A DNA stretch of 43,537 bases. It comes from a virus (taxonomy: Duplodnaviria > Caudoviricetes). Numbering within the stretch: position 1 is the stretch's first letter; every line of letters starts with the position of its first letter. Under the pieces are notes generated by a model that saw only the letters and a program-made list of their open reading frames with translations, had not been told where the DNA came from and did no database searches. Where the stretch lies: IMG/VR virus record IMGVR_UViG_3300022936_000004, positions 1 to 43,537 of that record; one strand, 5' to 3'. The position numbers and the translations under genes are program-made. This document shows, in pieces, positions 21,204 to 36,824 of the stretch.

Positions 21204-22101
21204 GGGTGGTGTCCTTGCTGGCAGGGGTGGGCGTCTGCCCGTTGGGCACCGCGCTTTCGCCTTCGGTCGAGCCACTGCGTGTCTCGCCGCTTCGCGCTTC
21301 AATCGCTGACGCTTGCTCGTGCAGCCAGTTCCATGCGCCAGTCAGAGCGCGCGCGATCTGCGGGCTATTCGGACTCGTGCCAGTGTGGCAGATCACGGTT
21401 CCGCTGCCTTCGATGTAGAGGCCGTGCATATGCTGCGGGCCGCTCTGGTCGAAATAGGCGGTGGTCAGCTTGACGCTCTCCGCGACATGGTTTGCGTGGC
21501 CGTCAGCGTCGAACGCCTCGGTCTGGCCCCACTCCGCAATGCCGACCTTCAGCACGATCTCGCGGATATCATCCGGAATGTCCGCGCTAGGGATCGTACC
21601 GGCGGAGCCGACAAGACCCGCAGGGGCTTCGCCCGAAGGGGTAGAGCCCGGGTCCGAAGGACAGCGCCCATCCTCAGGTCGATCCATCAGGACTGTACCA
21701 GAGGAGGCGCGGAGAGCTTCGGCGACCGCGTTCCAGTAGGTGCGTTCAGTGTCCGCGACAGGGTAGCGGTGAAAATCGCCGTCAGGCTGGCCGACCTTGA
21801 TCGCGGCTTCAATCGCCTCGTCCTCCACCAAGCTGGTGCTATGCTCGGGAGTTGGACGGGTGAGGTTTTCGAGGTGCGAGACTTCCCAGCCATCGACCAG
21901 ATCGCCATTGCAGACCGGAGGCCATTTCTCCGATATGGTGATGTCGTAACCGCCCATCATCTCGGGCGCGTACCGGATCGCGACGACATGCGCTTCAACG
22001 TCCCGCCAATCCGCCGCGTAGGCCATGGGCAGCAAATGTGATTTGCAGAATACGAGGTCACCAATCTGGTGAGGACACGGCAGGTGCTTCGGCTCACCCA
22101 T
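21196..22101 (-). CDS. Mosaic hypothetical protein containing two translated structured repeats
   Basis: 301 aa; elements E2 and E1 are read in frame. Confidence 0.6.
   Translation of the reverse strand: MGEPKHLPCPHQIGDLVFCKSHLLPMAYAADWRDVEAHVVAIRYAPEMMGGYDITISEKWPPVCNGDLVDGWEVSHLENLTRPTPEHSTSLVEDEAIEAAIKVGQPDGDFHRYPVADTERTYWNAVAEALRASSGTVLMDRPEDGRCPSDPGSTPSGEAPAGLVGSAGTIPSADIPDDIREIVLKVGIAEWGQTEAFDADGHANHVAESVKLTTAYFDQSGPQHMHGLYIEGSGTVICHTGTSPNSPQIARALTGAWNWLHEQASAIEARSGETRSGSTEGESAVPNGQTPTPASKDTTHE
21230..21312 (-). repeat. Structured repeat element E1
   Basis: GCGTCAGCGATTGAAGCGCGAAGCGGCGAGACACGCAGTGGCTCGACCGAAGGCGAAAGCGCGGTGCCCAACGGGCAGACGCC. Confidence 0.85.
21584..21668 (+). repeat. 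Structured repeat element E2 (inverted partner of E1)
   Basis: GCGCTAGGGATCGTACCGGCGGAGCCGACAAGACCCGCAGGGGCTTCGCCCGAAGGGGTAGAGCCCGGGTCCGAAGGACAGCGCC. Confidence 0.75.
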
Positions 22102-22441
22102 GGGATATTCCTTCGTTGATGAGGGCGGGATGCGAAACGTCGATCGCGTAAACCAGCTCGGGGTTCGGCCCGAAATGCGGGTGTGTGATCGTGCGGATCA
22201 TCTCGCCGCGATATTGCCGGGTCAGCCGGGTCACGCCCTCGACGCCACCAGCCTTCGGATAGCCTCGCGTCAGCACGACATGGCGATAGGACCGGTTGCG
22301 CAGGCGCTTGATCCAGTACGGCGTGACGAGCCGGTATTCCTCCAGCTTTTCGCCGCTCGCGATCTGGTCGAAATAGACACCCTTCACTGGGATGGTGAGG
22401 TCCTTCGTCAGCCCCGCCGCAACTTGTGGAATGGTGGTCAT
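22094..22441 (-). CDS. ASCH/PUA-like domain protein
   Basis: L-x-VKGVYFDQIASGEKLEEYRL...YWIKRL...RGYP. Confidence 0.8.
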   Translation of the reverse strand: MTTIPQVAAGLTKDLTIPVKGVYFDQIASGEKLEEYRLVTPYWIKRLRNRSYRHVVLTRGYPKAGGVEGVTRLTRQYRGEMIRTITHPHFGPNPELVYAIDVSHPALINEGISHG

Positions 22442-22641
22442 GCGGGCTGATCCTTGAACCAACAGAACGGCTCGCGAGGCCAGTGGATGTAGTGATGCGC
22501 CTCGCCCTCAGGGCCGTCGTAGCGGCTGATAACGAGGACGGTGTTGCCTGCCGTCCAAAACCACGCCTTCACGCGGTCGTAGGCGACCTGAGACGTGCTA
22601 TCGTCGCGATAAAGGGTAAGTTTGCGCTCGGTGCGGGGCAT
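22438..22641 (-). CDS. Hypothetical protein (MPRTERKLTLY...)
   Basis: Translationally coupled on both sides. Confidence 0.55.
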   Translation of the reverse strand: MPRTERKLTLYRDDSTSQVAYDRVKAWFWTAGNTVLVISRYDGPEGEAHHYIHWPREPFCWFKDQPA

Positions 22642-23012
22642 CAGAAGCCTCCCGTCTTGGAGTGCTGAACGCAAAACAGCCCGCCAAGCCCGTGGCCATC
22701 TCGGCGTTTGCAGCGAAACAGGTGCAGTACGAGCGATCCCCGTCCAGCGTACCCAGCGCAGCGCCCCGGCGACCACCGCTGTGGCTCATGGTCCTCCATG
22801 AAGCACTCGTAGTGCCGAGATTTGACGCGCTCTATCTCAGCCGCTCGCGCGCGCTCCTCAATGATCCCCTCCCTATCAGGGACGGTGGGACGGGAGAGGG
22901 CTTCAGCGGCGCGAAGCATGGCACGGCGCGCGGTGTGCGGGATGCCCGACACCAATGACGTGTCGCACAGGGTGCGCAGCTCCGCGATCAGCGCTTCATC
23001 TGGGGTGGTCAT
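22641..23012 (-). CDS. Hypothetical protein with C-terminal Cys/His motif
   Basis: RCKRRDGHGLGGLFCVQH. Confidence 0.55.
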   Translation of the reverse strand: MTTPDEALIAELRTLCDTSLVSGIPHTARRAMLRAAEALSRPTVPDREGIIEERARAAEIERVKSRHYECFMEDHEPQRWSPGRCAGYAGRGSLVLHLFRCKRRDGHGLGGLFCVQHSKTGGF

Positions 23013-23974
23013 TTGCCTGCATCCCCGTTCGTTGTGGTGCGGGTGACTATTGCGATAGCCTCTTCAGGGGGCGCATCGCGGGGTATGCCCGAGCGCTCGA
23101 CCATGTTTCTGCCGAGTTTGACCGTTGCTTCCTGAACGCGCCTATCGTCAGCATCCGGCAACGGGTAGGTATCAGATGCCCAACCAGTCGTGTCGGTGAG
23201 CATGAGGTACATTCCGTTCGTCCACAGGGGCTGCTCGGAAAGAACTTCGAAAGCGCCTTTGAGCGCGGACAGGCAATCTAGAACGGCCCGATCATAGGCC
23301 TCACCCTTTGCGCCTTCGAAGGCCGGGGTGAAGTTCGCAGCCGCCCGTGCACGCACGGCAATCAGGGGCGCGAACAGCGGATGATCCTCATCCCGAGCGT
23401 ACGGGTCCAAGGCTGGCACGAACACTCCCGCCACCCGCTCGACTTCCCCCGAAGGATCGGAGGGGGTGGCGGCATAAGGCACGATGGTCCACGCATCTTC
23501 GTCTTCGCGGTGGACCGCTTCCGCGTCCTCACGGCGAGCATAACGGGTCGCCTGTTCGCGGTCGGCGGTCCAATCGCTCATGCCGTCCGACCAAGTGCGC
23601 CACCGCTTACCGTCGCCGGAACCGACGATCCAGCCAAGGGGAGCCGCTTCCACCCCACCGGACGGATGGGGATGGGAGAGGGCGGCGCGAACCGCTGTCC
23701 AGTACGCCCGCTCCGTGTCCTGTATCGGGTTAAAGCGGAAGTCGCGGGTAGGCGGCACGGTGTTGGGCCACGCTGATACCTTGATCGCCGCGATAATCGC
23801 AGCATCGGACAGCATCACCCCTTCGCTGGATGCCGTGGATGGCGGGGCCGGGGTTTCGGCGAGACTGGCTTCGATCAGGTCTGCCGCCGTGTCGAAATCG
23901 TCCCCGAGAGGTTCGCCGTCCCGAAATCGCTCGATCAGTGCCCGCGCTTCTGACGCATTGTGGGGGGATTTCAT
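23009..23974 (-). CDS. Mosaic hypothetical protein
   Basis: 321 aa with several short domains joined by Pro/Ser linkers. Confidence 0.6.
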   Translation of the reverse strand: MKSPHNASEARALIERFRDGEPLGDDFDTAADLIEASLAETPAPPSTASSEGVMLSDAAIIAAIKVSAWPNTVPPTRDFRFNPIQDTERAYWTAVRAALSHPHPSGGVEAAPLGWIVGSGDGKRWRTWSDGMSDWTADREQATRYARREDAEAVHREDEDAWTIVPYAATPSDPSGEVERVAGVFVPALDPYARDEDHPLFAPLIAVRARAAANFTPAFEGAKGEAYDRAVLDCLSALKGAFEVLSEQPLWTNGMYLMLTDTTGWASDTYPLPDADDRRVQEATVKLGRNMVERSGIPRDAPPEEAIAIVTRTTTNGDAGK

Positions 23975-24312
23975 GCTGGGGTTTCCTGCTCGCTCGATGC
24001 GGTGGAAGGGGTGCGGATGATCTCAGCCATGCGTGCGAAGCGCAGTATTTGGGAAAGCCCGCTAGGCGATGCCCAATTCTCGCAAAATTCGATGACGGCC
24101 TGATCGGTCCATTCAGTTGCCCGCTCTTCCGCTACTGCTTGTTGACGGTGACGGGCGAGAAGCAGGATCACCCAGTCGTAATCGCCGCCCGCATTGGTTC
24201 CCGCGCGAATCCAACCCGCATAGTCAGGATCGCGGAAATACGAGTACAGGCCAGCCGCAGCATCACGATCCGTCTGGTTCACTTCTACCGTTTCGGGAAG
24301 GGTGTTGGTCAT
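23971..24312 (-). CDS. Hypothetical protein (MTNTLPETVEV...)
   Basis: ATGA-coupled to the upstream ORF. Confidence 0.55.
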   Translation of the reverse strand: MTNTLPETVEVNQTDRDAAAGLYSYFRDPDYAGWIRAGTNAGGDYDWVILLLARHRQQAVAEERATEWTDQAVIEFCENWASPSGLSQILRFARMAEIIRTPSTASSEQETPA

Positions 24313-24782
24313 GAGGGGTCTCCAGATGGAGTTTGGGCGTCTGGCTGCGCCACCGCGCTCTCGCCTACGGCTGCGCCCGTTCCGGTCGCATCGCTTCGCG
24401 CTTCGATCGCTGACGCGTGAGTTTCGAGAGCCGCCGCTAGTTCGCGAAGCTGGCAAGCATCATCGAACGGGCACTCTCCCCTGTCGGACAGGGGGCACTC
24501 GGAAACACCGGTGGTCCAGTCCATGGGACTGACGCGCGCGCATCCCGGTTCGCAATCGATCCGGTCAGCTACAGCACGCAGCACGTCCACCGATGCGCCG
24601 CGATGTTCGACCTTCAAGGTGTAAACAGCATCCCGATACTCGACCATCTGCCGAAAGCGGAGTTCGCTCGACGCCTTGTATTGGTCGCGCTCTTCGATGA
24701 TGCGCTGCCTCTCACCGCGCGCCATCCACCACCAACGGCGAACGACGTTGCGGGTGTCGCGGATTGCCCGTCCAACTTTCAT
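24309..24782 (-). CDS. Hypothetical protein ending in translated element E3
   Basis: C-terminus ASAIEARSDATGTGAAVGESAV. Confidence 0.55.
   Translation of the reverse strand: MKVGRAIRDTRNVVRRWWWMARGERQRIIEERDQYKASSELRFRQMVEYRDAVYTLKVEHRGASVDVLRAVADRIDCEPGCARVSPMDWTTGVSECPLSDRGECPFDDACQLRELAAALETHASAIEARSDATGTGAAVGESAVAQPDAQTPSGDPS
24336..24416 (-). repeat. Structured repeat element E3
   Basis: GCGTCAGCGATCGAAGCGCGAAGCGATGCGACCGGAACGGGCGCAGCCGTAGGCGAGAGCGCGGTGGCGCAGCCAGACGCC. Confidence 0.85.
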
Positions 24783-25012
24783 TTCGCCCTCCTGAGAAGA
24801 TGCGCCAGTTCAAGCGCGCTACGCACGTGACTCATGATGATCTGATCGTCGCTGGAAACCGACTGCATGACCGCCGCGCCAAGGTGGGCGATGATTTCCG
24901 CAATCACATCCGCGCTAGGGATTGAAGCCGGGACGGGCGAGACAGCTTGCTGGCTCGATGCCGAAGGCACGAAAGCCCGGTCCGGTACGGAAGCGCCATT
25001 ATCCTCGCTCAT
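24779..25012 (-). CDS. Hypothetical protein beginning with antisense element E4
   Basis: N-terminus ...VSPVPASIPSAD. Confidence 0.5.
   Translation of the reverse strand: MSEDNGASVPDRAFVPSASSQQAVSPVPASIPSADVIAEIIAHLGAAVMQSVSSDDQIIMSHVRSALELAHLLRRAK
24912..24997 (+). repeat. Structured repeat element E4 (inverted partner of E3)
   Basis: GCGCTAGGGATTGAAGCCGGGACGGGCGAGACAGCTTGCTGGCTCGATGCCGAAGGCACGAAAGCCCGGTCCGGTACGGAAGCGCC. Confidence 0.85.
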
Positions 25013-25218
25013 GATGCCCCACCCTCCTTGCGGAGATGGGAGGCTACTTGCTGGCCGAGGGGCGCTAGCTCCACATAGGTCAGACAGAGAGCGTGCAACT
25101 GGCGAGCGATCCCCGGCTTGTCTCGTGCCAGATCGTCCATCGTCCAGTTGTCGTTATCCACTAACGCCGCCCGCTGCGCCTTCGTGAGGCTTGCGACTAT
25201 CTCAGCTACATCGGTCAT
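25009..25218 (-). CDS. Small winged-helix-like hypothetical protein
   Basis: LTKAQRAAL...LAPLGQQVASHL; similar to 26765-27025. Confidence 0.55.
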   Translation of the reverse strand: MTDVAEIVASLTKAQRAALVDNDNWTMDDLARDKPGIARQLHALCLTYVELAPLGQQVASHLRKEGGAS

Positions 25219-25562
25219 GATGGAGTTCCTTGGTGGGCACGGGCCTTCAGGGCCGCTGCGCAGATCGCCAGTGGGATGCTGTTGCAGGCGTTTTCGCCGT
25301 AGAAAGGGTAGCCGTCCGCACCGTGGTTCATGTTGATCGTGACGCGCGCGACCCGATAGAGCGTCGTGATTTCGATCTCGTCGCGCATGTCGGCGTGAAC
25401 CAGCGTCATTGCTGCGTCGATGGAGGCGGTGTAATGCGGACCGAGATCACCTCGCTGCCCACGCCTCAGCACGTAAGCGCTTTGCAAGATGGCCGCATCA
25501 AGTTCGCGATCCGGACCCGTCGCAGACTCACACCGAGCCGCCAGTTCGTTCAGATCACCCAC
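25215..25562 (-). CDS. Phage ABA-sandwich-like domain protein
   Basis: GPDRELDAAI...PHYTASIDAAMTLV...PLAICAAALKA. Confidence 0.65.
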   Translation of the reverse strand: MGDLNELAARCESATGPDRELDAAILQSAYVLRRGQRGDLGPHYTASIDAAMTLVHADMRDEIEITTLYRVARVTINMNHGADGYPFYGENACNSIPLAICAAALKARAHQGTPS

Positions 25563-26064
25563 GATCAGCCTCCATCTTACCTTGAGGGGTGGTCTCGTGT
25601 TCGCCGCATCCGCGACCGATCAGTTCGCCATGCGCGCCAGCAGTGAAGTCCTGCCACGACACGAATCCTTGCGGGCAATGGAAGCCCCAATCGCGAACCT
25701 TCGGGCCAGGGAAAAACAGCGAGATGCAGGGCTTGCCGCCAACCAGTTCAAGGCGATGGCTGTCCGTCGCCCTCCGATGAATCAGCGCGCCAGCCTCACG
25801 GAGAAACGTTCCATCCGGCGTGATTTCGCGGTATGCCCCGGCAAGCAGAAGCGAGACGTTATCCCACGGATGATCGTGCAGCGCGCGGTCGTCGTCATCG
25901 CGCAGGATTTCGTGCAGATAGACGTTCTGGAACTCATTGCGCGGAACGATCCACCAACGCCGCAGATAGGCCGGATCGCCGATCACGAAGTCGGGGCCGT
26001 GGATCATCTTGGCGCGCGCCCATGCGGCCATGTCGCCAATATCGGTGTAATCGAGACGGCTCAC
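25555..26064 (-). CDS. Cupin-fold phage protein
   Basis: YLRRW...YLH...DDDRALHDHPW...GAYRE...HRLEL...WGF. Confidence 0.7.
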   Translation of the reverse strand: MSRLDYTDIGDMAAWARAKMIHGPDFVIGDPAYLRRWWIVPRNEFQNVYLHEILRDDDDRALHDHPWDNVSLLLAGAYREITPDGTFLREAGALIHRRATDSHRLELVGGKPCISLFFPGPKVRDWGFHCPQGFVSWQDFTAGAHGELIGRGCGEHETTPQGKMEADRG

Positions 26065-26768
26065 TTCCCCTCTCCCATCTTACCCTTGGTGGGGGAGAGG
26101 AGGGCGCGGGCGACGTGTCGAGCGCGCGACTGGTCCTTCCAGTTGTTGCCAGCGATCTGCTCCAGCCCCTCTCGTAGCTGGCGGATTTCAGCTATTAGGG
26201 TGGGGGCTTGGTTGCGGAGTTCCGAGATAAGGGCTGCGTTGGCGGCGCTTTCGCGGTTGAAGGCATCGTCACCCGGCACCTTCGGATCGATTGCCGAATG
26301 GTGCACGTAGTTGAGGCTTGCGATTGATCGTCCCGATGAAGCGACAACCGGCCAGCCAACAACCGTAGATGGCTTTGCGGCGGCAATCCAAGGCCCCGGC
26401 GTCGCTTCCGCCAGCAGTTTCTCTATATGGTCGATATTGGTCGCGATATCAGTAGGCTGCGGCGCATTCTCCGTAGCCGGAGAACCGGGCTTTCGTCCTT
26501 CGGACTGAGCCACCTTCGGCGTCTCATCGGTTCCCGCTTCAATCCCTTGCGAGATGACGCGGTAACGCACAATGTCGGCGTGCTGGTAGCCGTACCCAGT
26601 TTTGGCGTAGGGGGCAGGAGTATACTCCCACCAATTCCAGCTTTGGCCGAATTTACCCGCGTTGTCGGTCTCCTCATACCCATCGCGGCACTCAACCTCG
26701 ACCAGCGCCTCAGGATCGACAGGGCATTCCCCACCGTTCCATTCTATCCATTGAGGAGTGTTGGTCAT
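26061..26768 (-). CDS. Two-domain accessory protein (WIEWNGGECPV domain + Ead/Ea22-like domain) joined by element E5
   Basis: ATPGPW...ANAALI...NQAPTLIAEIRQLR at the C-terminus; the linker is E5. Confidence 0.65.
   Translation of the reverse strand: MTNTPQWIEWNGGECPVDPEALVEVECRDGYEETDNAGKFGQSWNWWEYTPAPYAKTGYGYQHADIVRYRVISQGIEAGTDETPKVAQSEGRKPGSPATENAPQPTDIATNIDHIEKLLAEATPGPWIAAAKPSTVVGWPVVASSGRSIASLNYVHHSAIDPKVPGDDAFNRESAANAALISELRNQAPTLIAEIRQLREGLEQIAGNNWKDQSRARHVARALLSPTKGKMGEGK
26461..26552 (-). repeat. Structured repeat element E5
   Basis: TCGCAAGGGATTGAAGCGGGAACCGATGAGACGCCGAAGGTGGCTCAGTCCGAAGGACGAAAGCCCGGTTCTCCGGCTACGGAGAATGCGCC. Confidence 0.85.
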
Positions 26769-27025
26769 GCCGAGCCTCCGATATATCGCTGGACCTTCAG
26801 GCCTAGCTCGGTAGGATGCTGAACACAGGCCAACATCGTGCGGCCAAAACCGAGCTGCATCTGGCCATCTGCAAGGCCTTTAGCCTCAAGTGATTTGCGG
26901 GCGCGGGTTAGGCTTGGATCGTAGTTGCCTTTTCCATCTTCACGAAGCTGGCGCAAGACGCGCTTCTCAGGGCCGCTTAGCTTTCGAGCGATCTCGATTA
27001 CTTCCCAGTCGGTTTCCTCGGTCAT
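26765..27025 (-). CDS. Small winged-helix-like hypothetical protein
   Basis: LSGPEKRVL...LEAKGL...PTELG. Confidence 0.55.
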   Translation of the reverse strand: MTEETDWEVIEIARKLSGPEKRVLRQLREDGKGNYDPSLTRARKSLEAKGLADGQMQLGFGRTMLACVQHPTELGLKVQRYIGGSA

Positions 27026-27026
27026 C

Positions 27027-27221
27027 TTACTTCTCCCCTGTGGGGTTGAGCCGGTCCAAGTGGAATTGCGTTAGCTTCACTACGGACGGGCGCGGTGTGC
27101 GATGGTTCTTGCTATCGATGGGGTATTCCCACCTCCGTACCGCAAGAGGGGTTACGCCGTGTATATCGGCGAACTCGCTTAGGCTCATGCCTAGTCTCTT
27201 GCGGGCGGTTTTGATGTTCAT
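27027..27221 (-). CDS. XRE-family HTH transcriptional regulator
   Basis: IKTARKRLGMSLSEFADIHGVTPLAVRRWE. Confidence 0.8.
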   Translation of the reverse strand: MNIKTARKRLGMSLSEFADIHGVTPLAVRRWEYPIDSKNHRTPRPSVVKLTQFHLDRLNPTGEK

Positions 27222-27514
27222 CGGGGCGGCTGCTCACTGACAAGCGGCCCCCAAAAGAAATCTTGGGGCCACTGTGTCACGGGAATGCCGAACACTTGAA
27301 CCGATAACGACTCATCGTCATTCGGGTCATAGCCTCCCATCACATTTTCGCTGACCATGACGATTTCCCAATCGCCCGACGCCCAGCTATCGCCTTCTGG
27401 CTCGATCCTAATTCCCTGATGCGCAGTGCCTTTCAGGCATTCGGAATACAGGTAGCCGCCAGAAGGCGTCTTAAGCTTTGCCCAATAATAGCCGGGGGCC
27501 TGTGGCGCACTCAT
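27218..27514 (-). CDS. Hypothetical protein
   Basis: PGYYWAKL motif; coupled. Confidence 0.6.
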   Translation of the reverse strand: MSAPQAPGYYWAKLKTPSGGYLYSECLKGTAHQGIRIEPEGDSWASGDWEIVMVSENVMGGYDPNDDESLSVQVFGIPVTQWPQDFFWGPLVSEQPPR

Positions 27515-27696
27515 GTCGCTTGCCTCTTCATGACTTCGCGGAAAATAGCGTCCTGCTGCGCCTTGTCCGTGCTGATGTAATACCGCACAGGATCGCGAAG
27601 AAACTGCGCCCGATGCTCAGCAGAAAGTTCGGGCAGTAGGTAGCCGTCGATGTTGAACAGGCTGCGGACCATGTTGGTGAAAAGATGCTGATTCAT
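27511..27696 (-). CDS. Hypothetical protein
   Basis: 61 aa, coupled. Confidence 0.55.
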   Translation of the reverse strand: MNQHLFTNMVRSLFNIDGYLLPELSAEHRAQFLRDPVRYYISTDKAQQDAIFREVMKRQAT

Positions 27697-27857
27697 GCCG
27701 CATCACTCCAGTGGGCCTTGCGGGTGCAGATGTACGAGCCGTAGGCGTTGTCCATCCGATCCACCGCGCGGCTTGCTGCGGCACTCGTCTTGTACTCCGT
27801 AACCTTGCCGGTGATGCGGTTGGTGACGGTGTAGTGCGTGATGTGGGCGGTGGTCAT
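27693..27857 (-). CDS. 54-aa hypothetical protein MTTAHITHYTVTNRITG... (not in the ORF track)
   Basis: AGGAG RBS, ATGA overlap with the next gene, first gene after the promoter. Confidence 0.6.
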   Translation of the reverse strand: MTTAHITHYTVTNRITGKVTEYKTSAAASRAVDRMDNAYGSYICTRKAHWSDAA

Positions 27858-27901
27858 TTGCTTGCTCCTGCGTGGCGAGCCGTAGCGGCTCTGTGAGTTA
27901 G

Positions 27902-27930
27902 GTTGTGCCTGAGGGATTATCCGCTGTCAA
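27902..27930 (-). promoter_or_regulatory. Promoter TTGACA-N17-CACAAC
   Basis: Perfect -35 with 17-bp spacer in an intergenic gap; the -10 resembles CATAAC of the rightward early promoter. Confidence 0.55.
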
Positions 27931-27949
27931 CAGGGTTTGTGAGTTTATT

Positions 27950-28261
27950 TCACTCTTCCTCCATTGCCTTGGTTATCCATGCGCCATAGCAATCCCGATG
28001 ATCCCACGGGAGGAAGGGATAGGGCGTCCCGTCCTTTCGCTCCTGTGCAGCGCCAAGATGGAAGCCGTGCTTGTACGCATCGGGAGCAATGACCTTTAGC
28101 GCCGCCATACCCCACGGAGCCAGCAAGCGGTTCATATCCTCGTCGCTCAGCTTGGCGTTCTCTTCCTCCGTGAATTGTGCTCTCATCCCCTCACGTAAGG
28201 TTCCTAGTCCCTCTATAGGCTCGTCTAGGATAGAGGAGGTTACTTTGTGGATTAGGGTCAT
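27950..28261 (-). CDS. Hypothetical protein
   Basis: 103 aa, coupled. Confidence 0.55.
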   Translation of the reverse strand: MTLIHKVTSSILDEPIEGLGTLREGMRAQFTEEENAKLSDEDMNRLLAPWGMAALKVIAPDAYKHGFHLGAAQERKDGTPYPFLPWDHRDCYGAWITKAMEEE

Positions 28262-28749
28262 GATACTGTCCTTTCGGCGTCTGCCTGCGGCACCGCGCTT
28301 TCGTCTGCGATCAAGCCAGCTTCGCCGTCTTGCCCCTTACGGGCTTCAATCGCTGACGCACGGGTATGTCCGAGCCTGTGCGCTGCAGGGTGGTGTCCTG
28401 CGCTCTTAATCTGGTTCCCAATGCGCAAAGTGCGCTCCGGTGCGATGAGATGGGCAAAGGCAACCGCGTCTCTCGCATGACTATCGTTTGGGTAGCTGGT
28501 CGCATAAAGCAACAAGCAGTCCACATGATTAAAGGCCCACCACCGCAGACTTTCAACCTCATCGGTCAGCCGCGCATTGGCCGCTCGCTCGCTATCCAGC
28601 GTTGTTACGGCTTCGTGGTATTCTCTACCCTTCTCGGTGAGAATTGCCATCTGGGCCTCCAGCGAGGCGCACAGCGTACGATAGGCCCGGTTCTGCGCCA
28701 GTAGACCCTCCCTCGTTTCGGGAATCGGCGCTTTTGCTGCGCTGCTCAT
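28258..28749 (-). CDS. Coiled-coil hypothetical protein ending in element E6
   Basis: LDSERAANARLTDEVE; C-terminus ASAIEARKGQDGEAGLIADESAV. Confidence 0.6.
   Translation of the reverse strand: MSSAAKAPIPETREGLLAQNRAYRTLCASLEAQMAILTEKGREYHEAVTTLDSERAANARLTDEVESLRWWAFNHVDCLLLYATSYPNDSHARDAVAFAHLIAPERTLRIGNQIKSAGHHPAAHRLGHTRASAIEARKGQDGEAGLIADESAVPQADAERTVS
28276..28359 (-). repeat. Structured repeat element E6
   Basis: GCGTCAGCGATTGAAGCCCGTAAGGGGCAAGACGGCGAAGCTGGCTTGATCGCAGACGAAAGCGCGGTGCCGCAGGCAGACGCC. Confidence 0.85.
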
Positions 28750-29613: not shown

Positions 29614-29843
29614 CGCTTGGGTGTCCTCTCACATCCGCTCAAGCGCTAGGGACGCCTAATCCCGTAACGCTTGCCCCGCTTTGAGCCTGAAAATGGTTCG
29701 GCGGGGCAACAAGGAACTAAGCATGGATCACAGCAAAACGCAAGCGCGACGTGAACCGCCCGAGGGTTTCTGGAAAACTCCGAAAGGACGCGCTCTGGCA
29801 GAGGAACGCGAGCGAAAGGCCGAACGGGATACGTGGCGGCATT

Positions 29844-30446
29844 TCAGCAACTGGCGTTAAGCGCAGCCTCTGCCTTCTCCAACCTCTCCCGCCATATTCT
29901 GATCTGAGTGAAGTTACGTATCTGAGAGGCTGATGCGATCTGCGCCTTGCAGTAGGCGACGTATTCCGCTGGATCGGTGGGAATCGCAGTTACTGTTTTT
30001 GGCGCAGGAGCGCGTTGCCCGTTTGGCACTTTCGACCGCCTCACCCATCCCCGCCAGACCGCCAGCCATTCAACATGGCGCGTCCCTTTGCCGATAAACC
30101 AATCCTTGAAGCACACAGCTTCGGTCTCGCATACTTCTCTCGACCAGCCCCGTTCGGTCTGTGCCCACAAGAGCCACTCGTCTGGCATGACGAATGCTGC
30201 CGGTAGCCGGGACGCTCTGGCATCCGTTTCCCGGCGTGTCGTGGTGAATGTCACCCCTTCCGTCTCAAATGCCTCCATGATCGCCAGAACGTGCTTTAGA
30301 TCGAGTTGAGCGTACATTGCGAAGGCAGCGGGAACAAACTTGCTCTTAGCCTCTCGCATGGCTGCGTGTTGATGATAGACGTGGCAGGGGCGGACCTTGG
30401 CGATTGACGCTAGGTGCATCCATAGGGGATCGGTGGGAGATGTCAT
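29844..30446 (-). CDS. Replication/primosome protein with DnaT-like C-terminal domain
   Basis: RASRLP...W...FKDWF..KG....W.AVWRGWVRR resembles phage DnaT-like domains. Confidence 0.6.
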   Translation of the reverse strand: MTSPTDPLWMHLASIAKVRPCHVYHQHAAMREAKSKFVPAAFAMYAQLDLKHVLAIMEAFETEGVTFTTTRRETDARASRLPAAFVMPDEWLLWAQTERGWSREVCETEAVCFKDWFIGKGTRHVEWLAVWRGWVRRSKVPNGQRAPAPKTVTAIPTDPAEYVAYCKAQIASASQIRNFTQIRIWRERLEKAEAALNASC

Positions 30447-30793
30447 CCGTGCGCCGCCTGTTGCAGCTTACCGGTAGCCTCATATCTCCGCATATCGACG
30501 GCGATCTGAGATTCGATGATAGCCCGCGCATCCTTCGCCGGGAATAACCCCGCCAGCCTGCGATACTCATCCCGGTACTCAAGTGGGCACCAGTTGATTC
30601 TTGCCCGTGAGGTGGCCGCACAGCGGGCGAGCAGGCGCTTACGGACATCCGGTTCAGCTAGTCGCGCTTTAAGGCGCTCCGTGCGCTGCTCCAGCACTCC
30701 GGGGAGGCTCAATCTGGCAAGTGATGCGTGACGCCTGCACATGCCGGTTTTGGAGCGGACAAGTGGTATAGAGCATTTTGAACAGGTCTTCAT
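30443..30793 (-). CDS. Hypothetical protein with N-terminal Zn-finger-like motif
   Basis: CSKC...MCRRH. Confidence 0.55.
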   Translation of the reverse strand: MKTCSKCSIPLVRSKTGMCRRHASLARLSLPGVLEQRTERLKARLAEPDVRKRLLARCAATSRARINWCPLEYRDEYRRLAGLFPAKDARAIIESQIAVDMRRYEATGKLQQAAHG

Positions 30794-30794
30794 C

Positions 30795-31070
30795 TCATTC
30801 CCCGCTTATCAAGGTCAGCCGCACCTCTCGCGCAAAGTCGATGTTGCGGTCATCCCGCAATCTGGTAGCGTGAAGCACGGTCGTATGATTCAACCCAAGC
30901 CATGATGCGATCTGCGGGTTGGAGAATCCATCGTGCCAGCGCAGGCGGTTCATCACCTCCTTGCGCGCCGTCCAGAGATTACCGCGACACCGCTTAACCA
31001 GCATCCTGCTTACCGGTACACCATGTGCCCGTGCAGCTTCGGCTAGGTAGCGTTCAACTCTAGGCGGCAT
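30795..31070 (-). CDS. DnaA C-terminal-like HTH protein
   Basis: AR...S.PQIA..LGLNHTTVLHA. Confidence 0.75.
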   Translation of the reverse strand: MPPRVERYLAEAARAHGVPVSRMLVKRCRGNLWTARKEVMNRLRWHDGFSNPQIASWLGLNHTTVLHATRLRDDRNIDFAREVRLTLISGE

Positions 31071-31434
31071 GTATCACTCCCCATTCGCCAAGTTGGCGCT
31101 TCACGTCATCTAATGACCTGCACACGGCAAACCCTCCCCCGGCCAGCGTAATGGCATCCTCGACAATCTCCTGAGAGTCAGTCAGCTTGGTCTTTGGCAG
31201 CTTCAATTCGATTGCCAAAAACCGTCCGTCATGGCATAGGATCAAGTCAGGAGCGCCGACAATGAGACCGGTCTTTTTGAGGCGGTTCATCTGCATGCCG
31301 CGCCGCTTCTTGTCGCCCGCCAGCACGCTACCGTTGGGCACCGCGCAGAACCACGAGCACTTGGGCAGCGACAGACGAAGATAGGCCACCACGATAGCCT
31401 GAAAATCGTCCTCCGGCCTCATTCCGGAGGCCAC
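31060..31434 (-). CDS. VRR-NUC (PD-D/ExK) nuclease
   Basis: E...Q, VPNG, GAPDL, IELK, SQ, VCRSLDD. Confidence 0.85.
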   Translation of the reverse strand: MASGMRPEDDFQAIVVAYLRLSLPKCSWFCAVPNGSVLAGDKKRRGMQMNRLKKTGLIVGAPDLILCHDGRFLAIELKLPKTKLTDSQEIVEDAITLAGGGFAVCRSLDDVKRQLGEWGVIHAA

Positions 31435-32018
31435 ATATTACAGCGATAGATTGTCATGGCCGAGAAACCACCCGAGCAATTGCATCCTCAAGATCGATCT
31501 GCCGCGCCTTTTCGGCCTTCCGCATTTCGCGATAGGCTTTGCGCTCTTCGCCCTTCATATTGCGGTACGTGACCCGCTGTTCGATGGGTATGCGATGAAC
31601 GTTGATGCTGGAGGCGCGTGCGCCGGATCGGATGGGGCTATCAAGCATTTCCTGAACAATTGGATCGATCATTTCAATCTCCTCCTTCTTGCCTTTTCGT
31701 TTGCGATAAGCTCTCGAATGATGTTGCCGGGAACGATATTCACAGTGGGCCACGTCTGAAACGGCGTCGGTGTGATGATCGACAATCTCTCATCGGACAT
31801 GGCCTTGAGCGAGTCCGTAATCATCTCGGGAGTGAACGGCTCGACGCTCCTGAGTGGCTTAGGCCCTTTCGCCATTGAACGCCTCCAGACAACGAGCAAG
31901 CTGCCTTGATCGCACCCTTGCCGCAGCTTTCCATGCCAGCTCACTACGGGCTGATCTCTCTTGACGACGCTCTAGGGTGTTTGTCATGTATTGAGAGAGG
32001 CAGAGGAGGTTGTCGGGG

Positions 32019-32468
32019 TCATCCATTGAGTTTCTCCCGAAGCGCCATGGCATCCCACCACGCGTTATGCTGGACAGCGCCTTCAAGCGTCGTTGGGTAG
32101 CAATCAACGTTGTGGACCTCGAACGTCATCTGCGGGTATTCCGCCGATGCCCATCCGCCAGTCGGCGAAGTCGTCATTGCGGCGCAGAATCGGCCAATAT
32201 CGACAGGGCTATCAGCGACAATAACGGGGTGTTCGGAAGGGCCGATAAACTCGCGGATAACCGTACCGACGTGGTTTACATCCACCCTCCAGTTGAGCGT
32301 GGCTTGATGCATGCCCATGATCGGAATAACGTTGGCGATGACCCACGGATCGCGGACCTCGGCATTCGTGCGGATGTGAATGCTGCGCCCATCTTCGCGA
32401 ACAAGAGCGATACTCAGCAGCGGCCCATCGTGACCGTCAAACTCGCAATCGATATAATAGCGGCTCAT
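32019..32468 (-). CDS. DEDDh 3'-5' exonuclease-like protein (Rv2179c-like)
   Basis: YIDCEFDG, SIALV, WVIANVIP, HNAWWDA. Confidence 0.75.
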   Translation of the reverse strand: MSRYYIDCEFDGHDGPLLSIALVREDGRSIHIRTNAEVRDPWVIANVIPIMGMHQATLNWRVDVNHVGTVIREFIGPSEHPVIVADSPVDIGRFCAAMTTSPTGGWASAEYPQMTFEVHNVDCYPTTLEGAVQHNAWWDAMALREKLNG

Positions 32469-32619
32469 TTTCCGCTCCTATGCCAGCGATACACCCGACC
32501 ATTCCAGCCGTTGTACCATTTGTCGGGATCGTGGAATTTACTCACCCTCTTGGGCTGCTTAATCTCCACAGGAACCAGAACACCCTCTTCAAAGGGTATC
32601 CCTCTAAGGGTTATGGGGT

Positions 32620-32916
32620 TCATTGTGGGGTGTTCGAGAGTGCAGCGTCGATCATGATCGCCCACGACATCTCCAACTGCCATTTGTTGAGCGGAGAGCA
32701 GGTTAACGATAGTGCCTTCTCGGACAATCCCAGCATCGCAACCGTAGGCTCACGTAGAGCCTCGATAGCTGCTCGCGCCAGAGCGTTGACAACGGTGTGG
32801 GCCTTGTTCTCGCCAGAGAAATCCAACATGTCGAACAGGCGCGGAAATTCACCCTCATCATCGCGGATCACGGCTTCGCGCATGGCCTTCGCGACTCGCT
32901 CTACAATCTCACTCAT
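32620..32916 (-). CDS. Hypothetical protein
   Basis: MSEIVERVAKAM...ARAAIEALREPT...MIDAAL, a common phage family pattern. Confidence 0.65.
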   Translation of the reverse strand: MSEIVERVAKAMREAVIRDDEGEFPRLFDMLDFSGENKAHTVVNALARAAIEALREPTVAMLGLSEKALSLTCSPLNKWQLEMSWAIMIDAALSNTPQ

Positions 32917-33001
32917 GCTCTATCCTTTCTATCTCAGGCGCGGATACGTGCGAGGGCAGTCCGGACCATGCTGCCACAGTTCGAAAGTCGAGATGGTCGA
33001 T

Positions 33002-33160
33002 TTACTCATCGTCGGCTTCCTCGTTCAGATCGTGAGCAACGCAGCCGGTGCCTCCGCATCGTGGGCAATCTTCGCCGCTATCCATCGGATCGCCATTGCG
33101 ACCGCTTGAGTGAACGCTCCCAACGCCGTTGCAGAACGGGCATTCAATGTCGATAATCAT
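33002..33160 (-). CDS. Small DnaJ-type Zn-finger protein
   Basis: CPFCNGVG...CPRCGGTG; GGAGG RBS. Confidence 0.65.
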   Translation of the reverse strand: MIIDIECPFCNGVGSVHSSGRNGDPMDSGEDCPRCGGTGCVAHDLNEEADDE

Positions 33161-33382
33161 GATGGCCTCCCTTGACGAAGGGCGCGAAGCATCGACGCCC
33201 GTTTCCAACCGTAATAGGAACGAATGGCCTCAAAGCTGCCGCCAAAAGTCGTTTCGAATTGGCGATATAGGCGACGACATTCTTGGTTGTCGCCAGTCCA
33301 AACCGCCCGCGCGTCGATACTGTGCATCATGCCACCCACTCCACGTTACGGTGAAGGTCGCGCACAACCTCTTGATTACCCA

Positions 33383-33607
33383 TTATAAGCGCTCCTGCTC
33401 TAGACGGTCCAATACCGGCGGCTCAGGAAGAAAATCGTTAGGCTTGACCTTCCCGCCCGTATGGCGTTCAATCTTGCGCAGCAGCCTCAGCGATGGGTCA
33501 TACTCCCGAAGCGATGCGCGCGTGATCGTGGACACCGATACACCGCACTTGGCGGCTAGATCGGAAGCGGTCTGACCCGGAAGGGCGAGATAATCTTTGA
33601 GCTGCAT
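33383..33607 (-). CDS. Cro-like HTH regulator (start revised to MQLKDYL)
   Basis: LAAKCGVSVSTITR...PS...IERHTGGKVKPNDF; first gene of the leftward operon. Confidence 0.8.
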   Translation of the reverse strand: MQLKDYLALPGQTASDLAAKCGVSVSTITRASLREYDPSLRLLRKIERHTGGKVKPNDFLPEPPVLDRLEQERL

Positions 33608-33613
33608 GGCTAC

Positions 33614-33703
33614 CTTATTGCACATAGCGCAACGCCTCGCAATCAGCTTATTTTCACACCACGCAAAATAGTGCTTGCACGCCACGCAAACCGAGCGCAT
33701 AAC
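33614..33703. promoter_or_regulatory. Divergent early promoters with three 15-bp operator-like repeats TT(G/T)CAC-N4-CGCAA
   Basis: Repeats at 33618-33632, 33652-33666, 33675-33689; rightward TTGCAC-N17-CATAAC at 33675-33703; leftward TTGCGA at 33642-33637. Confidence 0.7.
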
Positions 33704-33737
33704 CCTGACATCGCCGCAGTGGCGAAGGAGGAAGACG

Positions 33738-34325
33738 ATGGCGAAGCTTAGCAAGAATACCCGCGAGCGCATGGCGAAGGCGCTGGTCCGTCATCGCTAC
33801 CAGGGCCGCGCTGACGAACTGCTGGTGGAAAGCGCCGCCTTGTTCGATGCGGTCTATGAGGCGCGCTACGATGCGCCAACGCGCTCGTTGATGGGCAAGC
33901 TGGAAAAGCTGCACCCGAAAGCATTCTCTACCGCCAACCAGTTCATGATCAACGCTCGCGGGATGCGGGTCGGCATCGGCGCTTACGCAGTCGGTATCTA
34001 CGCTCTCGTGCGCTGGGAGCAGAACCTGCCAAACCGCTCCGTCTTCGACCGATACAATGAAACCGCTCCCGAGGAGCTTGTGGATCGTATCGCAGAGTTC
34101 GGCCTTTCCACGAAAGCCTTCGATGACGCGGTGAAGCAAGCCTATACCCGCGCGCTCGGCACGATCAATCAGTTCGGCACCGCCAAGCGGCTTGCCGAGG
34201 AATGGCCCGAAGCCATGCCCATCATCGGCGAACTGATCCCGACCGAGGACCGCACCCTGCCCGTCGTGCAGCTTGAAGCGATCAACGACGAGTTCGGCCT
34301 GCCGCCATCGGATATCGCAGCGTAA
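33738..34325 (+). CDS. Nmad5-family (nucleotide modification associated domain 5)-like protein
   Basis: KLSKNTRERMA...TAKRLAEEWPEA...LPVVQLEAINDEFGLP; AGGAGG RBS. Confidence 0.7.
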   Translation: MAKLSKNTRERMAKALVRHRYQGRADELLVESAALFDAVYEARYDAPTRSLMGKLEKLHPKAFSTANQFMINARGMRVGIGAYAVGIYALVRWEQNLPNRSVFDRYNETAPEELVDRIAEFGLSTKAFDDAVKQAYTRALGTINQFGTAKRLAEEWPEAMPIIGELIPTEDRTLPVVQLEAINDEFGLPPSDIAA

Positions 34326-34359
34326 GTTAGTCAACCCATAGTGGGTGAGGAGGATTGAG

Positions 34360-34647
34360 ATGGACGAGGAGTTTAAGTTCTCGCCGTTGCGCGTAGACCC
34401 AAACTGCAACTGCGATGTCCAGACCGCAGATGGTATCTACGGAATTGGCTCGACGCACCCCAGCGTTCTTTCTGGAGGCGAGACTCTGCCGGGAACCGCT
34501 CGGGCGTATGCCACGCTATTTGCCGCAGCGCCGGACATGTTCCACGCCTTGCGCGGATTGCTCGACAATCTTTCCGAGGGTGATTTTATCAGCGAAGATC
34601 GCATCGATGCGGCGCGCTCGGCCATCGCGAAGGCTCTCGGACGATGA
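34360..34647 (+). CDS. Hypothetical protein (AAP-x-L...AIAKA family)
   Basis: AAAPDMFHAL...ARSAIAKALG. Confidence 0.6.
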   Translation: MDEEFKFSPLRVDPNCNCDVQTADGIYGIGSTHPSVLSGGETLPGTARAYATLFAAAPDMFHALRGLLDNLSEGDFISEDRIDAARSAIAKALGR

Positions 34648-34829
34648 CCCGCCCCAACCTATGCCCCTGCTCATGGTGCGAAGATGACGTTGAACCCAAC
34701 GATGACGGAACCTGTCCGTTTTGCGACCGGGTTATCGATGACATGGCAGCTCAGGATGCTGAACAAGCTATGATCGAAGAGTTCGTTGGATGGGAGCGCA
34801 ATGTGATTGAAGTGGATATGACGAGATGA
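34644..34829 (+). CDS. Small Cys-rich hypothetical protein
   Basis: CSWC...CPFC; coupled. Confidence 0.5.
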   Translation: MTRPNLCPCSWCEDDVEPNDDGTCPFCDRVIDDMAAQDAEQAMIEEFVGWERNVIEVDMTR

Positions 34830-34960
34830 ACACTGAACATTGGCCGGAGAAGCTTTTGCTGATCGCGCTTATTATGTCGGGATTGTGCGTCATGGGTTGC
34901 TTGGCTTGGGTTGGTTACGCCAGCGGCAATTATGCCTGCGTTTTAGCGATGCAGCCATGA
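34826..34960 (+). CDS. 44-aa single-TM protein MNTEHWPEKLLLIAL... (not in the ORF track)
   Basis: ATGA overlaps at both ends. Confidence 0.5.
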   Translation: MNTEHWPEKLLLIALIMSGLCVMGCLAWVGYASGNYACVLAMQP

Positions 34961-35286
34961 CACTCACTGAATCAATAGAGCAAGCCTCCCTCTGGAAGGT
35001 AGAGGCTTATCCGGTAATCAAGGCTTACCTGCTCGCCGTCGAGGCGCGGGATGTGCTGGCCGGTGCGAGTACGATCACAGGGCAATACCTCGCCCACTCG
35101 TTTCTGAGGCAGGCGTACGCCCACATCGAGGAACTGCGTGAGCAGGCGATAGAGCACAATTCCGGCATCTTCCTCGACACCATGACAGACGAGCAATGGC
35201 GTGAGGCCGAAGCCTTCAGTGAGGAACTCAATCGTTCTGTTCCTACTGTTATAGATGCTATTAGGGAGGTGGAAAGTGAAGGATAA
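34957..35286 (+). CDS. Hypothetical protein (MTLTESIEQ...)
   Basis: Coupled start. Confidence 0.55.
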   Translation: MTLTESIEQASLWKVEAYPVIKAYLLAVEARDVLAGASTITGQYLAHSFLRQAYAHIEELREQAIEHNSGIFLDTMTDEQWREAEAFSEELNRSVPTVIDAIREVESEG

Positions 35287-35740
35287 TCAAGGCGTTACCC
35301 CTGAGGGGGTCGGGCTTTCGCCTGCTACGCAGGTCGAGCCAGTGCCTGTCTCGCCGGTTCCCGCTTCAATCCCTAACGCGGCCTCGCCCAGCCCGTGGAA
35401 GGCGTGTAGAAATGGCGACTGTTCGTGTGGCCAGATTTGGTCCGTTCCGGCAGACCATCCCGTTGCGACGGTCGATGGTCCAGAATGGGGTGACACGCTA
35501 TGGGTGCCGCTCCAGAACGAGGACGGCTCTCTGGATGTCCGGCGAGAATTTCACGCATACGGTTCGTTCCCTGCCGAAACGCGCAAGGCCAACATTCTAC
35601 TGATGACCGCCGCGCCTGAACTGTTACAGGCCACCTTGGCGCTCTATGCGCTGATCGCGACCGATGCGCGCTATGAAGGCAGCGAGTGCGCGGACCTTGC
35701 ACGAGAGGCCATCGCCAAGGCAACGGGAGTAACCCCATGA
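35276..35740 (+). CDS. Hypothetical protein beginning with antisense element E7
   Basis: GGAGG RBS, GTG start; SPSPW...ANILLMTAAPELL...AIAKATG. Confidence 0.6.
   Translation: MKDNQGVTPEGVGLSPATQVEPVPVSPVPASIPNAASPSPWKACRNGDCSCGQIWSVPADHPVATVDGPEWGDTLWVPLQNEDGSLDVRREFHAYGSFPAETRKANILLMTAAPELLQATLALYALIATDARYEGSECADLAREAIAKATGVTP
35291..35379 (-). repeat. Structured repeat element E7
   Basis: GCGTTAGGGATTGAAGCGGGAACCGGCGAGACAGGCACTGGCTCGACCTGCGTAGCAGGCGAAAGCCCGACCCCCTCAGGGGTAACGCC. Confidence 0.85.
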
Positions 35741-35931
35741 TCGACCATCGCCCCAGCTCATATAACCGCTCATTCTACGAGAGGCCCATCCAAGGTAATG
35801 GGAGGGATGCTTTCGACTATGGGCGGGTATCGTTCAAACGACCTCGCGATCCATGGACCAAGCCCGTGCTTATCGGGGCTGTGGTCGTGGTCCTGTATTT
35901 TGTGGCGCAGATTTTGCGCTCGGCTTTCTGA
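35737..35931 (+). CDS. Small C-terminal-TM protein
   Basis: Coupled; hydrophobic C-terminus. Confidence 0.55.
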   Translation: MIDHRPSSYNRSFYERPIQGNGRDAFDYGRVSFKRPRDPWTKPVLIGAVVVVLYFVAQILRSAF

Positions 35932-35942
35932 GGAGAATTACG

Positions 35943-36278
35943 ATGGGCATCAGCACCCACGTCTACACCGTTTATGGTGTGAAGCACCCGTACAGCTCGG
36001 AGTTTTCCGAAGCGCAGGAGATTGACGACCTCTATAAGCTAACGTCCGAAGTTGCCATCTCAGACGGCATGGGCGGGGAGTATCTCATCATTGGGAAAAT
36101 CCTTTTCGACAGCGGAGACGCGCGCTGGGAGTCGCTGTCCGGCTTTGTCGAAATCGATCCGGCCAATCTCGGGCTCGCCAAGGAGGAGGCGTCGGCCAAG
36201 TTCATTGAAATCATGCCCGAGTTTGCGCACCTGCTTAACGCGCCGTGGCGGCTTATGACGTTCGCGCATTACAGCTAA
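35943..36278 (+). CDS. Hypothetical protein (MGISTHVYTVYG...)
   Basis: GAGGAG RBS; DGMGGEY motif. Confidence 0.65.
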   Translation: MGISTHVYTVYGVKHPYSSEFSEAQEIDDLYKLTSEVAISDGMGGEYLIIGKILFDSGDARWESLSGFVEIDPANLGLAKEEASAKFIEIMPEFAHLLNAPWRLMTFAHYS

Positions 36279-36339
36279 CCCCATCAAAGCAGAGTAGCTT
36301 CCTCCCATTGACTTACTCTGCTTTGCCCGGAGGGTGGTT

Positions 36340-36421
36340 GGCGATGCCTTTCAGGCCCGCGCTATCATCGCTTCGCGACCGAGCCTAAAGTCTCGGCCCT
36401 CCGGGTTTCTATCGCTATCGC
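36340..36421 (-). repeat. Structured repeat element E8
   Basis: GCGATAGCGATAGAAACCCGGAGGGCCGAGACTTTAGGCTCGGTCGCGAAGCGATGATAGCGCGGGCCTGAAAGGCATCGCC. Confidence 0.8.
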
Positions 36422-36435
36422 AAGGAGAAATTATT

Positions 36436-36741
36436 ATGGGTAATCACGCTATTGGCCGCGCATTTGTGGCAGCGGCCACCATCGCCGCCGAGCGCCGCCG
36501 CGAAGGTGAGACCGCGATTCAGATATTAGACGAGGCCGCTGATCGCACCGAAGTGCGCGGGATGGACGCTGAGTTCGACGACGCCTTCTTGCCCGGTGAG
36601 CCCATGTTTGCGCTTGTCGTAGAGGCGTTCGGAGACGGTGCTGACTTTAGCGAACCAGACGAAGGCGAGTGCGACGAGTTCTGGGATCGCTTCTACGGCG
36701 GCCCCTACGCTAAATTCCGCGAACGCTACGACCTCGGCTAA
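36436..36741 (+). CDS. Acidic hypothetical protein; cargo of the E8/E9 cassette
   Basis: AAGGAG RBS at 36422; MGNHAIGRAF...DAEFDD. Confidence 0.7.
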   Translation: MGNHAIGRAFVAAATIAAERRREGETAIQILDEAADRTEVRGMDAEFDDAFLPGEPMFALVVEAFGDGADFSEPDEGECDEFWDRFYGGPYAKFRERYDLG

Positions 36742-36744
36742 CCC

Positions 36745-36824
36745 GCGATAGCGACACTCAGCCGTAGGCTGGAGACGGCGAAGCTGGCTCCACTCGGGAG
36801 TGGCGTGGGCCGCAAGGCATCGCC
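36745..36824 (+). repeat. Structured repeat element E9 (variant; inverted partner of E8)
   Basis: GCGATAGCGACACTCAGCCGTAGGCTGGAGACGGCGAAGCTGGCTCCACTCGGGAGTGGCGTGGGCCGCAAGGCATCGCC; shares AGACGGCGAAGCTGGCT exactly with E6. Confidence 0.8.

Follow-up and report, generated by a model that had tools for sequence, protein, structure and literature searches.

The window analysed here, a single 43,537-bp contig that makes up the whole of IMG/VR record IMGVR_UViG_3300022936_000004, carries nine copies of an element of about 85 nucleotides that belongs to a widespread family. I consider it very probable that the element acts as folded single-stranded DNA (ssDNA). What the fold is for is a harder question, and on balance I lean towards a single-strand initiation signal whose convergent pairs would create exchangeable gene cassettes, because conversion to duplex is the one job that the virion strand of microviruses and the transferred strand (T-strand) of plasmids, both of which carry the element, have in common. 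An earlier sequence-only reading of the window had described the nine copies as a folded site recognised by its shape and repeated across the plastic parts of the genome. Three observations go beyond it: the loops are of a DNA type, copies pair up in inverted, outward-pointing orientation with exchangeable cargo between them, and the family reaches conjugative plasmids and ssDNA phages, where its strand polarity is fixed.

All nine copies are found on the strands and at the coordinates first proposed for them. A model (R2), for which 97 copies from phages and plasmids other than the window were used, gives each of them between 52 and 91 bits, while a search with the model built from the nine copies themselves (R1, filters off) yielded no tenth copy in the window, the next best candidate reaching 15.1 bits (E 0.12). 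As the sequence-only reading had noted, the copies avoid the virion, lysis and core recombination genes; all lie within 21.2-36.8 kb, and none falls in a virion, packaging, lysis or Gam/Sak/SSB gene. Six of them form three facing pairs (E1/E2, E3/E4 and E8/E9), each enclosing a cargo and here called a cassette. The copies and cargoes are listed below with their R2 scores and, where relevant, the open reading frame (ORF) in which they lie.

21230..21312, minus strand: E1, a predicted folded-ssDNA element that forms the left arm (at lower coordinates) of cassette A; read sense in ORF 21196-22101; 81.5 bits.
21313..21583, minus strand: 271 bp of cargo (cassette A), whose roughly 90 codons share the frame of the two arms; no Pfam match.
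21584..21668, plus strand: E2, right arm of cassette A; antisense within ORF 21196-22101; 65.9 bits.
24336..24416, minus strand: E3, left arm of cassette B; at the 3' end of ORF 24309-24782; 80.8 bits.
24417..24911, minus strand: cargo of cassette B, 495 bp.
24912..24997, plus strand: E4, right arm of cassette B; antisense in ORF 24779-25012; 91.3 bits.
26461..26552, minus strand: E5, unpaired; inside ORF 26061-26768; 73.3 bits.
28276..28359, minus strand: E6, unpaired; at the 3' end of ORF 28258-28749; 78.4 bits.
35291..35379, minus strand: E7, no near partner; antisense to the rightward early genes; 76.6 bits.
36340..36421, minus strand: E8, left arm of cassette C; 76.3 bits.
36422..36744, plus strand: 323 bp of cargo (cassette C), with a single acidic ORF, about 100 amino acids long, that ends at 36741; no Pfam match.
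36745..36824, plus strand: E9, right arm of cassette C and the most divergent copy; 52.2 bits.

The evidence for a fold is covariation. Compensatory changes had been picked out by eye, and they stand up to counting: the nine window copies alone show them in 17 of 24 predicted pairs, and among 93 distinct copies from outside the window 96.5% of cells are paired, with changes on both sides in 25 of 27 pairs. None of 500 shuffles of these outside copies matched any of five covariation measures, sliding the partner strand left only 37-43% of cells paired, and the strongest covarying columns fall outside the letters fixed by the search pattern. Single copies folded under RNA parameters do no better than their own shuffles (z +0.6 to -1.35), which is why the case is made from covariation and not from energy. 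In outline, the conserved fold consists of a closing stem, a three-way junction, two G-C/A.G/Y-R modules, a tandem G.A and GNA triloops. Its outer part comprises the closing stem GCGNN/NNCGC, a single A, and a stem GSG/CSC followed by an A.G mismatch, YN/NR and the tandem G.A. At the junction come hairpin 1, then a central stem (NNAG-AC/GG-CTNN) that contains the second of the A.G mismatches and bears hairpin 2, and in some copies hairpin 3. The 3' part runs through GG and hairpin 4 to a 3' CGCCC and then A-rich bases. The repetition of the A.G mismatch module in both stems, which the sequence-only reading had singled out, is conserved.

That this is a DNA fold rather than an RNA fold is suggested by its loops and pairs. 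Among 517 hairpins from 173 parsed elements (out of 215 distinct ones) there are 284 GNA triloops against only 17 GNRA loops, the others including 41 GNYA and 20 cTTg, and G-T pairs account for only about 35 of 2,343 paired cells in the 93 outside copies. C(GNA)G triloops are unusually stable as DNA, as are tandem G.A pairs. The same counts speak against the possibility that the element works as RNA in early phage transcripts, for instance in antitermination, in processing or as an antisense. Most window copies do lie in transcribed and translated regions, and a stop-free frame runs through both arms in 73 of the 117 distinct cassettes that I collected, compared with 28% of control segments. 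My reading of this, though, is that translation running unbroken through coupled early operons is selected for. An RNA role also sits badly with copies that are always antisense to the flanking genes in plasmids and sense in microviruses. Nor is there a match to an RNA family, in keeping with the sequence-only reading, which could match the element to no family it knew: at the gathering score Rfam gave no match in the window, where only chance-level matches turned up and none covered an element as a family, and in eight related loci it gave sok alone. I therefore regard an RNA function as very improbable.

A conserved encoded peptide can be set aside altogether. The similar one-frame translations of E1, E3, E5 and E6, with an IEA...DAP-like C-terminal motif, had made it worth considering, but the compensatory changes fall at all codon positions, and because copies are sense (E1, E3, E5, E6), antisense (E2, E4, E7) or, in plasmids and microviruses, intergenic, no peptide could account for them; the intergenic copies already refute it, and I give the idea practically no weight. 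A description of this fold was not found in the literature as far as it was available; the primary papers of 1991-1999 on ssi and CUP sequences may mention plasmid copies.

Among double-stranded DNA (dsDNA) phages, contigs carry up to 19 copies, and BLAST of element copies against GenBank phages returned few relatives. The proposed preference for plastic regions is borne out on this larger set, in which only 8 of 185 mapped phage copies lie in ORFs of at least 400 amino acids although such ORFs make up 22.6% of that DNA. Copies also tend to come in inverted pairs. Of 95 neighbours within 1 kb of each other, 84 are inverted (54 with their 5' sides facing and 30 tail-to-tail) and 11 share one orientation, an excess of inverted neighbours with a permutation p<5e-5. 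The facing pairs define the 117 cassettes, whose median enclosed length is 345 bp. A Pfam family was recognised in 11 of 111 cargo frames and was absent from the other 100; the 11 are three DNA methylases, two RNA ligases, Acb3, a SLOG protein, a deaminase, an SPFH protein, an HTH protein and DUF2283. The Acb3 case (L116, 17279-18088) is a full-length inhibitor of CBASS held as cargo inside an inverted pair (Pfam E 1.7e-78).

Comparison of relatives places the junctions of cargo differences at the feet of the closing stem, and cargo modules are likely to be exchanged at the element ends. In eight slots among the cassettes, both outer flanks and both elements are kept and the cargo differs in length (L045/L057, L088/L097 twice, L088/L112, L095/L101, L458/L278 and L483/L499 twice; self-matches within one locus, as in L084, L090, L102, L272 and L349, were excluded from this count). 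Of 28 element pairs with one common flank, some of them non-independent, 24 share the 3' flank. At least seven distinct cases show a near-identical element whose similarity is lost no more than about 5 nt from the 5' foot; about five others become similar only from the 3' foot on. In one further comparison (L100 against L096 at 12221-12815) an ORF that by eye resembles an HNH endonuclease splits the right-hand element at its first hairpin. Within the window, part of the cassette B cargo (24424-24740) has a 67%-identical counterpart in PP496355, where no elements flank it, and E5 separates two independently matching PHROG segments (amino acids 6-79 and 113-216) of ORF 26061-26768.

Junctions that cluster at both closing-stem feet could also be the work of an ssDNA recombinase or HUH transposase that takes the element as an attC-like or REP/REPIN-like substrate, cuts at the feet and inserts into single-stranded targets, with the strand bias a passive result. 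Divergent sequence over a conserved structure with two repeated mismatch modules would suit such a substrate, as would the repeated promoter unit of plasmids, which stops at the element's 3' CGCCC, and inverted pairs with cargo resemble REPINs. However, an inserting element should leave empty sites, and for 706 copies tested I found one doubtful match and essentially no clean one; in the three alleles that lack a cassette, 170-260 bp of other DNA takes its place, and by eye no target duplication is visible. No integrase, transposase or HUH gene is present among the 47 window proteins scanned, and none recurs in 70 neighbours on bacterial contigs. Bacterial genomes hold 1-6 copies each, unlike REP arrays (20 genomes chosen for having a match, with at most 150 candidates scored in each), and inverted sites do not excise by attC-type recombination. 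I consider a recombinase substrate rather improbable.

One hint at function comes from ssDNA phages. Ten independent microviruses (L323, with two near-identical relatives, L447, L459, L324, L300, L249, L386, L407, KT264808 and MH572438) and one inovirus provirus (L325, where the copy is intergenic after a Zot-like gene) carry a single copy each, on the strand that encodes Rep and capsid, so that 11 of 12 ssDNA phages have it on the coding strand. The coding strand is the packaged strand in phiX174, and I assume the same for the other ssDNA phages here. Eight small IMG/VR contigs (L364, L456, L465, L467, L474, L489, L513 and L526) were left out of this count, as they show no ssDNA-phage hallmark and several have tailed-phage or plasmid genes. 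In the gokushovirus-like L249, L300, L324, L386 and L448 the element ends just 5' of a CTTG-N-TA hairpin that resembles the origin/nick site of phiX174, CAACTTGATA, and rolling-circle single-strand origins sit in that same slot. In KT264808 it follows the capsid gene, where phiX174 has its pas and G4 its origin (PMC9865509). The available text of that paper states that any microvirus probably needs such a structure, unidentified in the clades it treats, and the available parts of PMC7062461 do not discuss one.

Other folded modules can occupy the slot. L386 and L407 retain the outer module only, and seven gokushovirus-like genomes (L370, L373, L381, L384, L387, L390 and L391) have there, on the plus strand only, a GAGAC-TACA-GGCTC hairpin with covarying outer arms, which is the central module of the element alone. 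Where an origin-like motif was matched, its distance 3' of this GAGAC-loop-GGCTC hairpin is 37-49 nt. Further microvirus relatives without the element hold different hairpin modules in the same place. Because the slot holds alternative folded modules, a function fits the element better than a selfish insertion does.

The plasmids tell a similar story about strand. BLAST matches of the F copy occur in 4,308 of 72,556 plasmid records and those of a Massilia copy in 4,617, mostly conjugative plasmids, and individual plasmids carry several copies (two each in F, R100, R388 and pNDM-ECS01, three in R46 and pPC9, four in pN-Cit and five in the Massilia plasmid). All 23 copies in these eight MOBF plasmids belong to the leading region and oppose its genes in strand, which puts them on the transferred strand; three of the 23 are weak (23-33 bits), one of them in pN-Cit, and the transferred strand was deduced from annotated mobF/relaxase, traM or stb positions, or for R100 from ssb. 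In three plasmids checked, about 570-750 bp separate most copies from the next gene, upstream of which they lie. Both copies in F adjoin Frpo1 and Frpo2. The published ssiD sequence stops about 90 nt short of the element's start, which is also about 40 nt 3' of the point that matches the ends of ssi1-3 of ColIb-P9, so the published ssiD and ssi1-3 sequences exclude it (PMC11541004, supplement 7). In the same supplement the candidate Frpo*2 has, by eye, a complete element copy at its end, on which the available text makes no comment, while beside the Frpo-like candidates Frpo*4 and Frpo*5 a different structured module apparently takes the element's usual place.

Pattern matches on bacterial genome contigs (going by record titles, mostly Proteobacteria) were borne out by the model, which matched 64 times in 80 loci, and their neighbours are largely leading-region genes (DUF932, DUF3560, ArdA, ArdC, KorA and methylases). 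Three IMG/VR contigs listed as viral (L465, L467 and L474) likewise have DUF932 or ArdC beside an antisense copy, as in plasmid leading regions. The element is absent from ColIb-P9, R64, pCTX-M3 and pOLA52. IncI1 plasmids and RP4 send their own primases, Sog and TraC1, into the recipient, according to the available text of PMC7213743.

A strand-specific ssDNA structure need not be a start site, and the same polarity would be expected of a protective or regulatory structure such as a polymerase roadblock, an exonuclease block, or an aptamer or decoy for a host protein (SSB, RecA, a nuclease or a defence sensor). On the plasmid template the element lies 3' of the ssDNA promoters, a position from which it would shield them, and a hairpin roadblock, ssp2, is documented in F in the accessible part of a preprint (bioRxiv 10.64898/2026.01.09.698686). 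The element's neighbours are anti-defence and establishment genes (DUF932, ArdA, ArdC, methylases), and Acb3, methylases and RNA ligase are among the few annotated cargoes, as protection or a decoy might predict. However, the stall mapped in F by that preprint, as far as its accessible part goes, is at ssp2 and not at the element; a roadblock is hard to square with a circular microvirus strand that needs full conversion; and a roadblock or decoy alone would leave the 5'-facing pairs and the junctions at the 5' foot unexplained. I rate this family of explanations as unlikely, though the likeliest of the rivals.

If the element is a single-strand initiation signal, its action might be pictured as follows. 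The folded form would arise in vivo when the strand is single, and a host enzyme (RNA polymerase, the PriA pathway or a primase) would prime at it, with synthesis running toward the element's 5' side. As synthesis on a template runs toward the template's 5' side, a facing pair would prime convergently through its cargo, and the cargo could be over-replicated as a short, linear, recombinogenic piece ending at the elements. Phage single-strand annealing proteins might then insert the piece between or beside other copies, using elements of 60-80% similarity as homology arms. Candidate machinery for such an exchange lies just beyond cassette C.

37227..38771, plus strand: genes for Gam-like/Gp157, Sak/Rad52-like (PHROG 'exonuclease') and SSB proteins; the Sak/Rad52 label is my own reading of the 'exonuclease' gene.

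The most far-reaching form of the proposal would make one ssDNA priming signal common to microviruses, inoviruses and the main MOBF plasmids, and would make the paired copies of dsDNA phages an enzyme-free system, similar to the polymerase chain reaction, that amplifies accessory and anti-defence genes for annealing proteins to swap. I offer this tentatively and think it rather less probable than not.

Several observations weigh against initiation at the element. Nearly a third of the close pairs (30 of 95) are tail-to-tail, and four of the nine window copies have no near partner. One microvirus, MG945282 (flagged unverified), has its copy on the non-coding strand. Only 2 of 77 capsid-selected relatives of L249 score, L386 and L407, both with reduced copies (34 and 24 bits), so the element is not a universal microvirus origin; a strict structural descriptor matches 1 of the 77. 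R751 (IncP), which I take to encode a primase, holds one weak copy (28 bits), and the absence of the element from pOLA52 has no evident tie to a plasmid primase. No amplified or excised form and no joints appeared in one public DNA run that holds the stretch in one 43,440-base contig; as that run is probably the source of the window, I do not count its null result as evidence, nor the fact that no RNA run was listed for the stretch. Finally, rifampicin abolishes early conversion of F downstream of the two Frpo/ssp1 loci, again by the accessible part of the preprint (bioRxiv 10.64898/2026.01.09.698686). These loci include the element's position. The effect is explained by Frpo alone, and it disfavours rifampicin-resistant priming by PriA or DnaG in F and E. 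coli. Priming by RNA polymerase at the element remains compatible with it.

The remainder of the window fits a tailed phage with P22-like head, portal and terminase genes. Its closest cultured counterpart among element carriers is Sphingopyxis phage VSN-002, which has an element pair at 13759/14215, and because the gene sets are similar the host is likely an alphaproteobacterium. A gene for a GIY-YIG-type homing endonuclease (12731-13474, minus strand) lies directly downstream of the major head gene, and two left-end ORFs (127-930, plus strand) without a PHROG match may be shadow frames. A 35-bp stretch at 25399-25434 is 94% identical to cargo segments of L097, L112 and L114, which suggests that these accessory regions may share further short linkers.

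If the far-reaching form of the proposal is borne out, the element would be a structured and functional version of the 'linker' sequences long hypothesised in modular phage evolution. In any case it gives tailed phages a definite place at which the swapping of accessory modules can be tested. The start of second-strand synthesis on incoming plasmid strands and on most environmental microviruses is understood mainly from a few E. coli models; here the element offers a defined 85-nt candidate that is open to direct deletion or cloning and occurs in more than 4,300 sequenced plasmids, F, R100, R46 and R388 among them. The covariance model could also be used to mark slots for accessory or anti-defence genes.

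How does the element compare with known systems? attC sites and REP/REPIN sequences are structure-recognised ssDNA sites beside exchangeable accessory genes, and a REPIN is an inverted doublet with cargo. The element differs from both in being branched rather than a single hairpin, and its consensus has neither RYYYAAC/GTTRRRY nor a GTAG foot. Membership of attC is rejected since 84 of 95 neighbours are inverted, not direct, and no integrase is linked among the 47 window proteins scanned, while REP/REPIN or a miniature inverted-repeat transposable element is rejected on the lack of a linked RAYT among those proteins and the 70 bacterial neighbours, the low copy number per genome in the 20 genomes, the near absence of empty sites and the lack of target duplication in the three alleles.

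The n'-pas of phiX174 and ColE1 is likewise a short folded ssDNA with GNA mini-hairpins, carried in phiX174 on a microvirus virion strand. With filters off, however, neither phiX174 nor ColE1 gave a match to the model (best E 1.4, away from pas), and a likeness to pas through GAAGCGG proved on checking not to be diagnostic. R46 (L077) has a separate pas-like stretch upstream of repA (CTGAGGGGTTGACC then GAAGCGG, at about 31390-31425, with the phiX-like motif at 31415), distinct from its three element copies. The G4-type primase origin, the M13 minus-strand origin and rolling-circle single-strand origins (sso) occur once on a single-stranded genome, as does the element in ssDNA phages; unlike them, the element is multi-copy and in both orientations in dsDNA phages. 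It matches neither the G4 origin nor the M13 intergenic hairpins (best E 3.7), and its alignment has no conserved CTG column. In position, however, it lies where a single-strand initiation signal should, on a strand that is single in vivo and near the plus-strand origin, with 11 of 12 ssDNA-phage copies on the coding strand and five just 5' of an origin-like hairpin.

In plasmids, the copies of R46, IncN2, pN-Cit and R388 lie within the CUP repeats of IncN R46/pKM101 and the long direct repeats of R388, leading-region units upstream of the ard/ccg operons. These repeats are described as promoter and ArdK-binding units, with no fold mentioned in the available text (PMC5371602). A further comparison is with the RNA-polymerase ssDNA promoters and priming sites Frpo/ssiD/ssp1 of F and ssi1-3 of ColIb-P9. 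Like the element's copies in F, Frpo/ssiD/ssp1 lie on the T-strand and in the same repeated units of the F leading region; a T-strand location in the leading region is common to all 23 MOBF copies, and for Frpo/ssiD, too, a role in single- to double-strand conversion has been proposed. Unlike Frpo, the element has no A+T-rich -35/-10 stem, is missing from ColIb-P9 and occurs in phages that lack Frpo; it is not a part of the published sites, which end about 90 nt (ssiD) or about 40 nt (the ssi1-3 equivalent) before it. Thus, the element falls outside Frpo/ssiD, pas, G4, M13, attC and REP in comparisons of sequence, yet by its position and strand it would appear to be ssi/sso-like.

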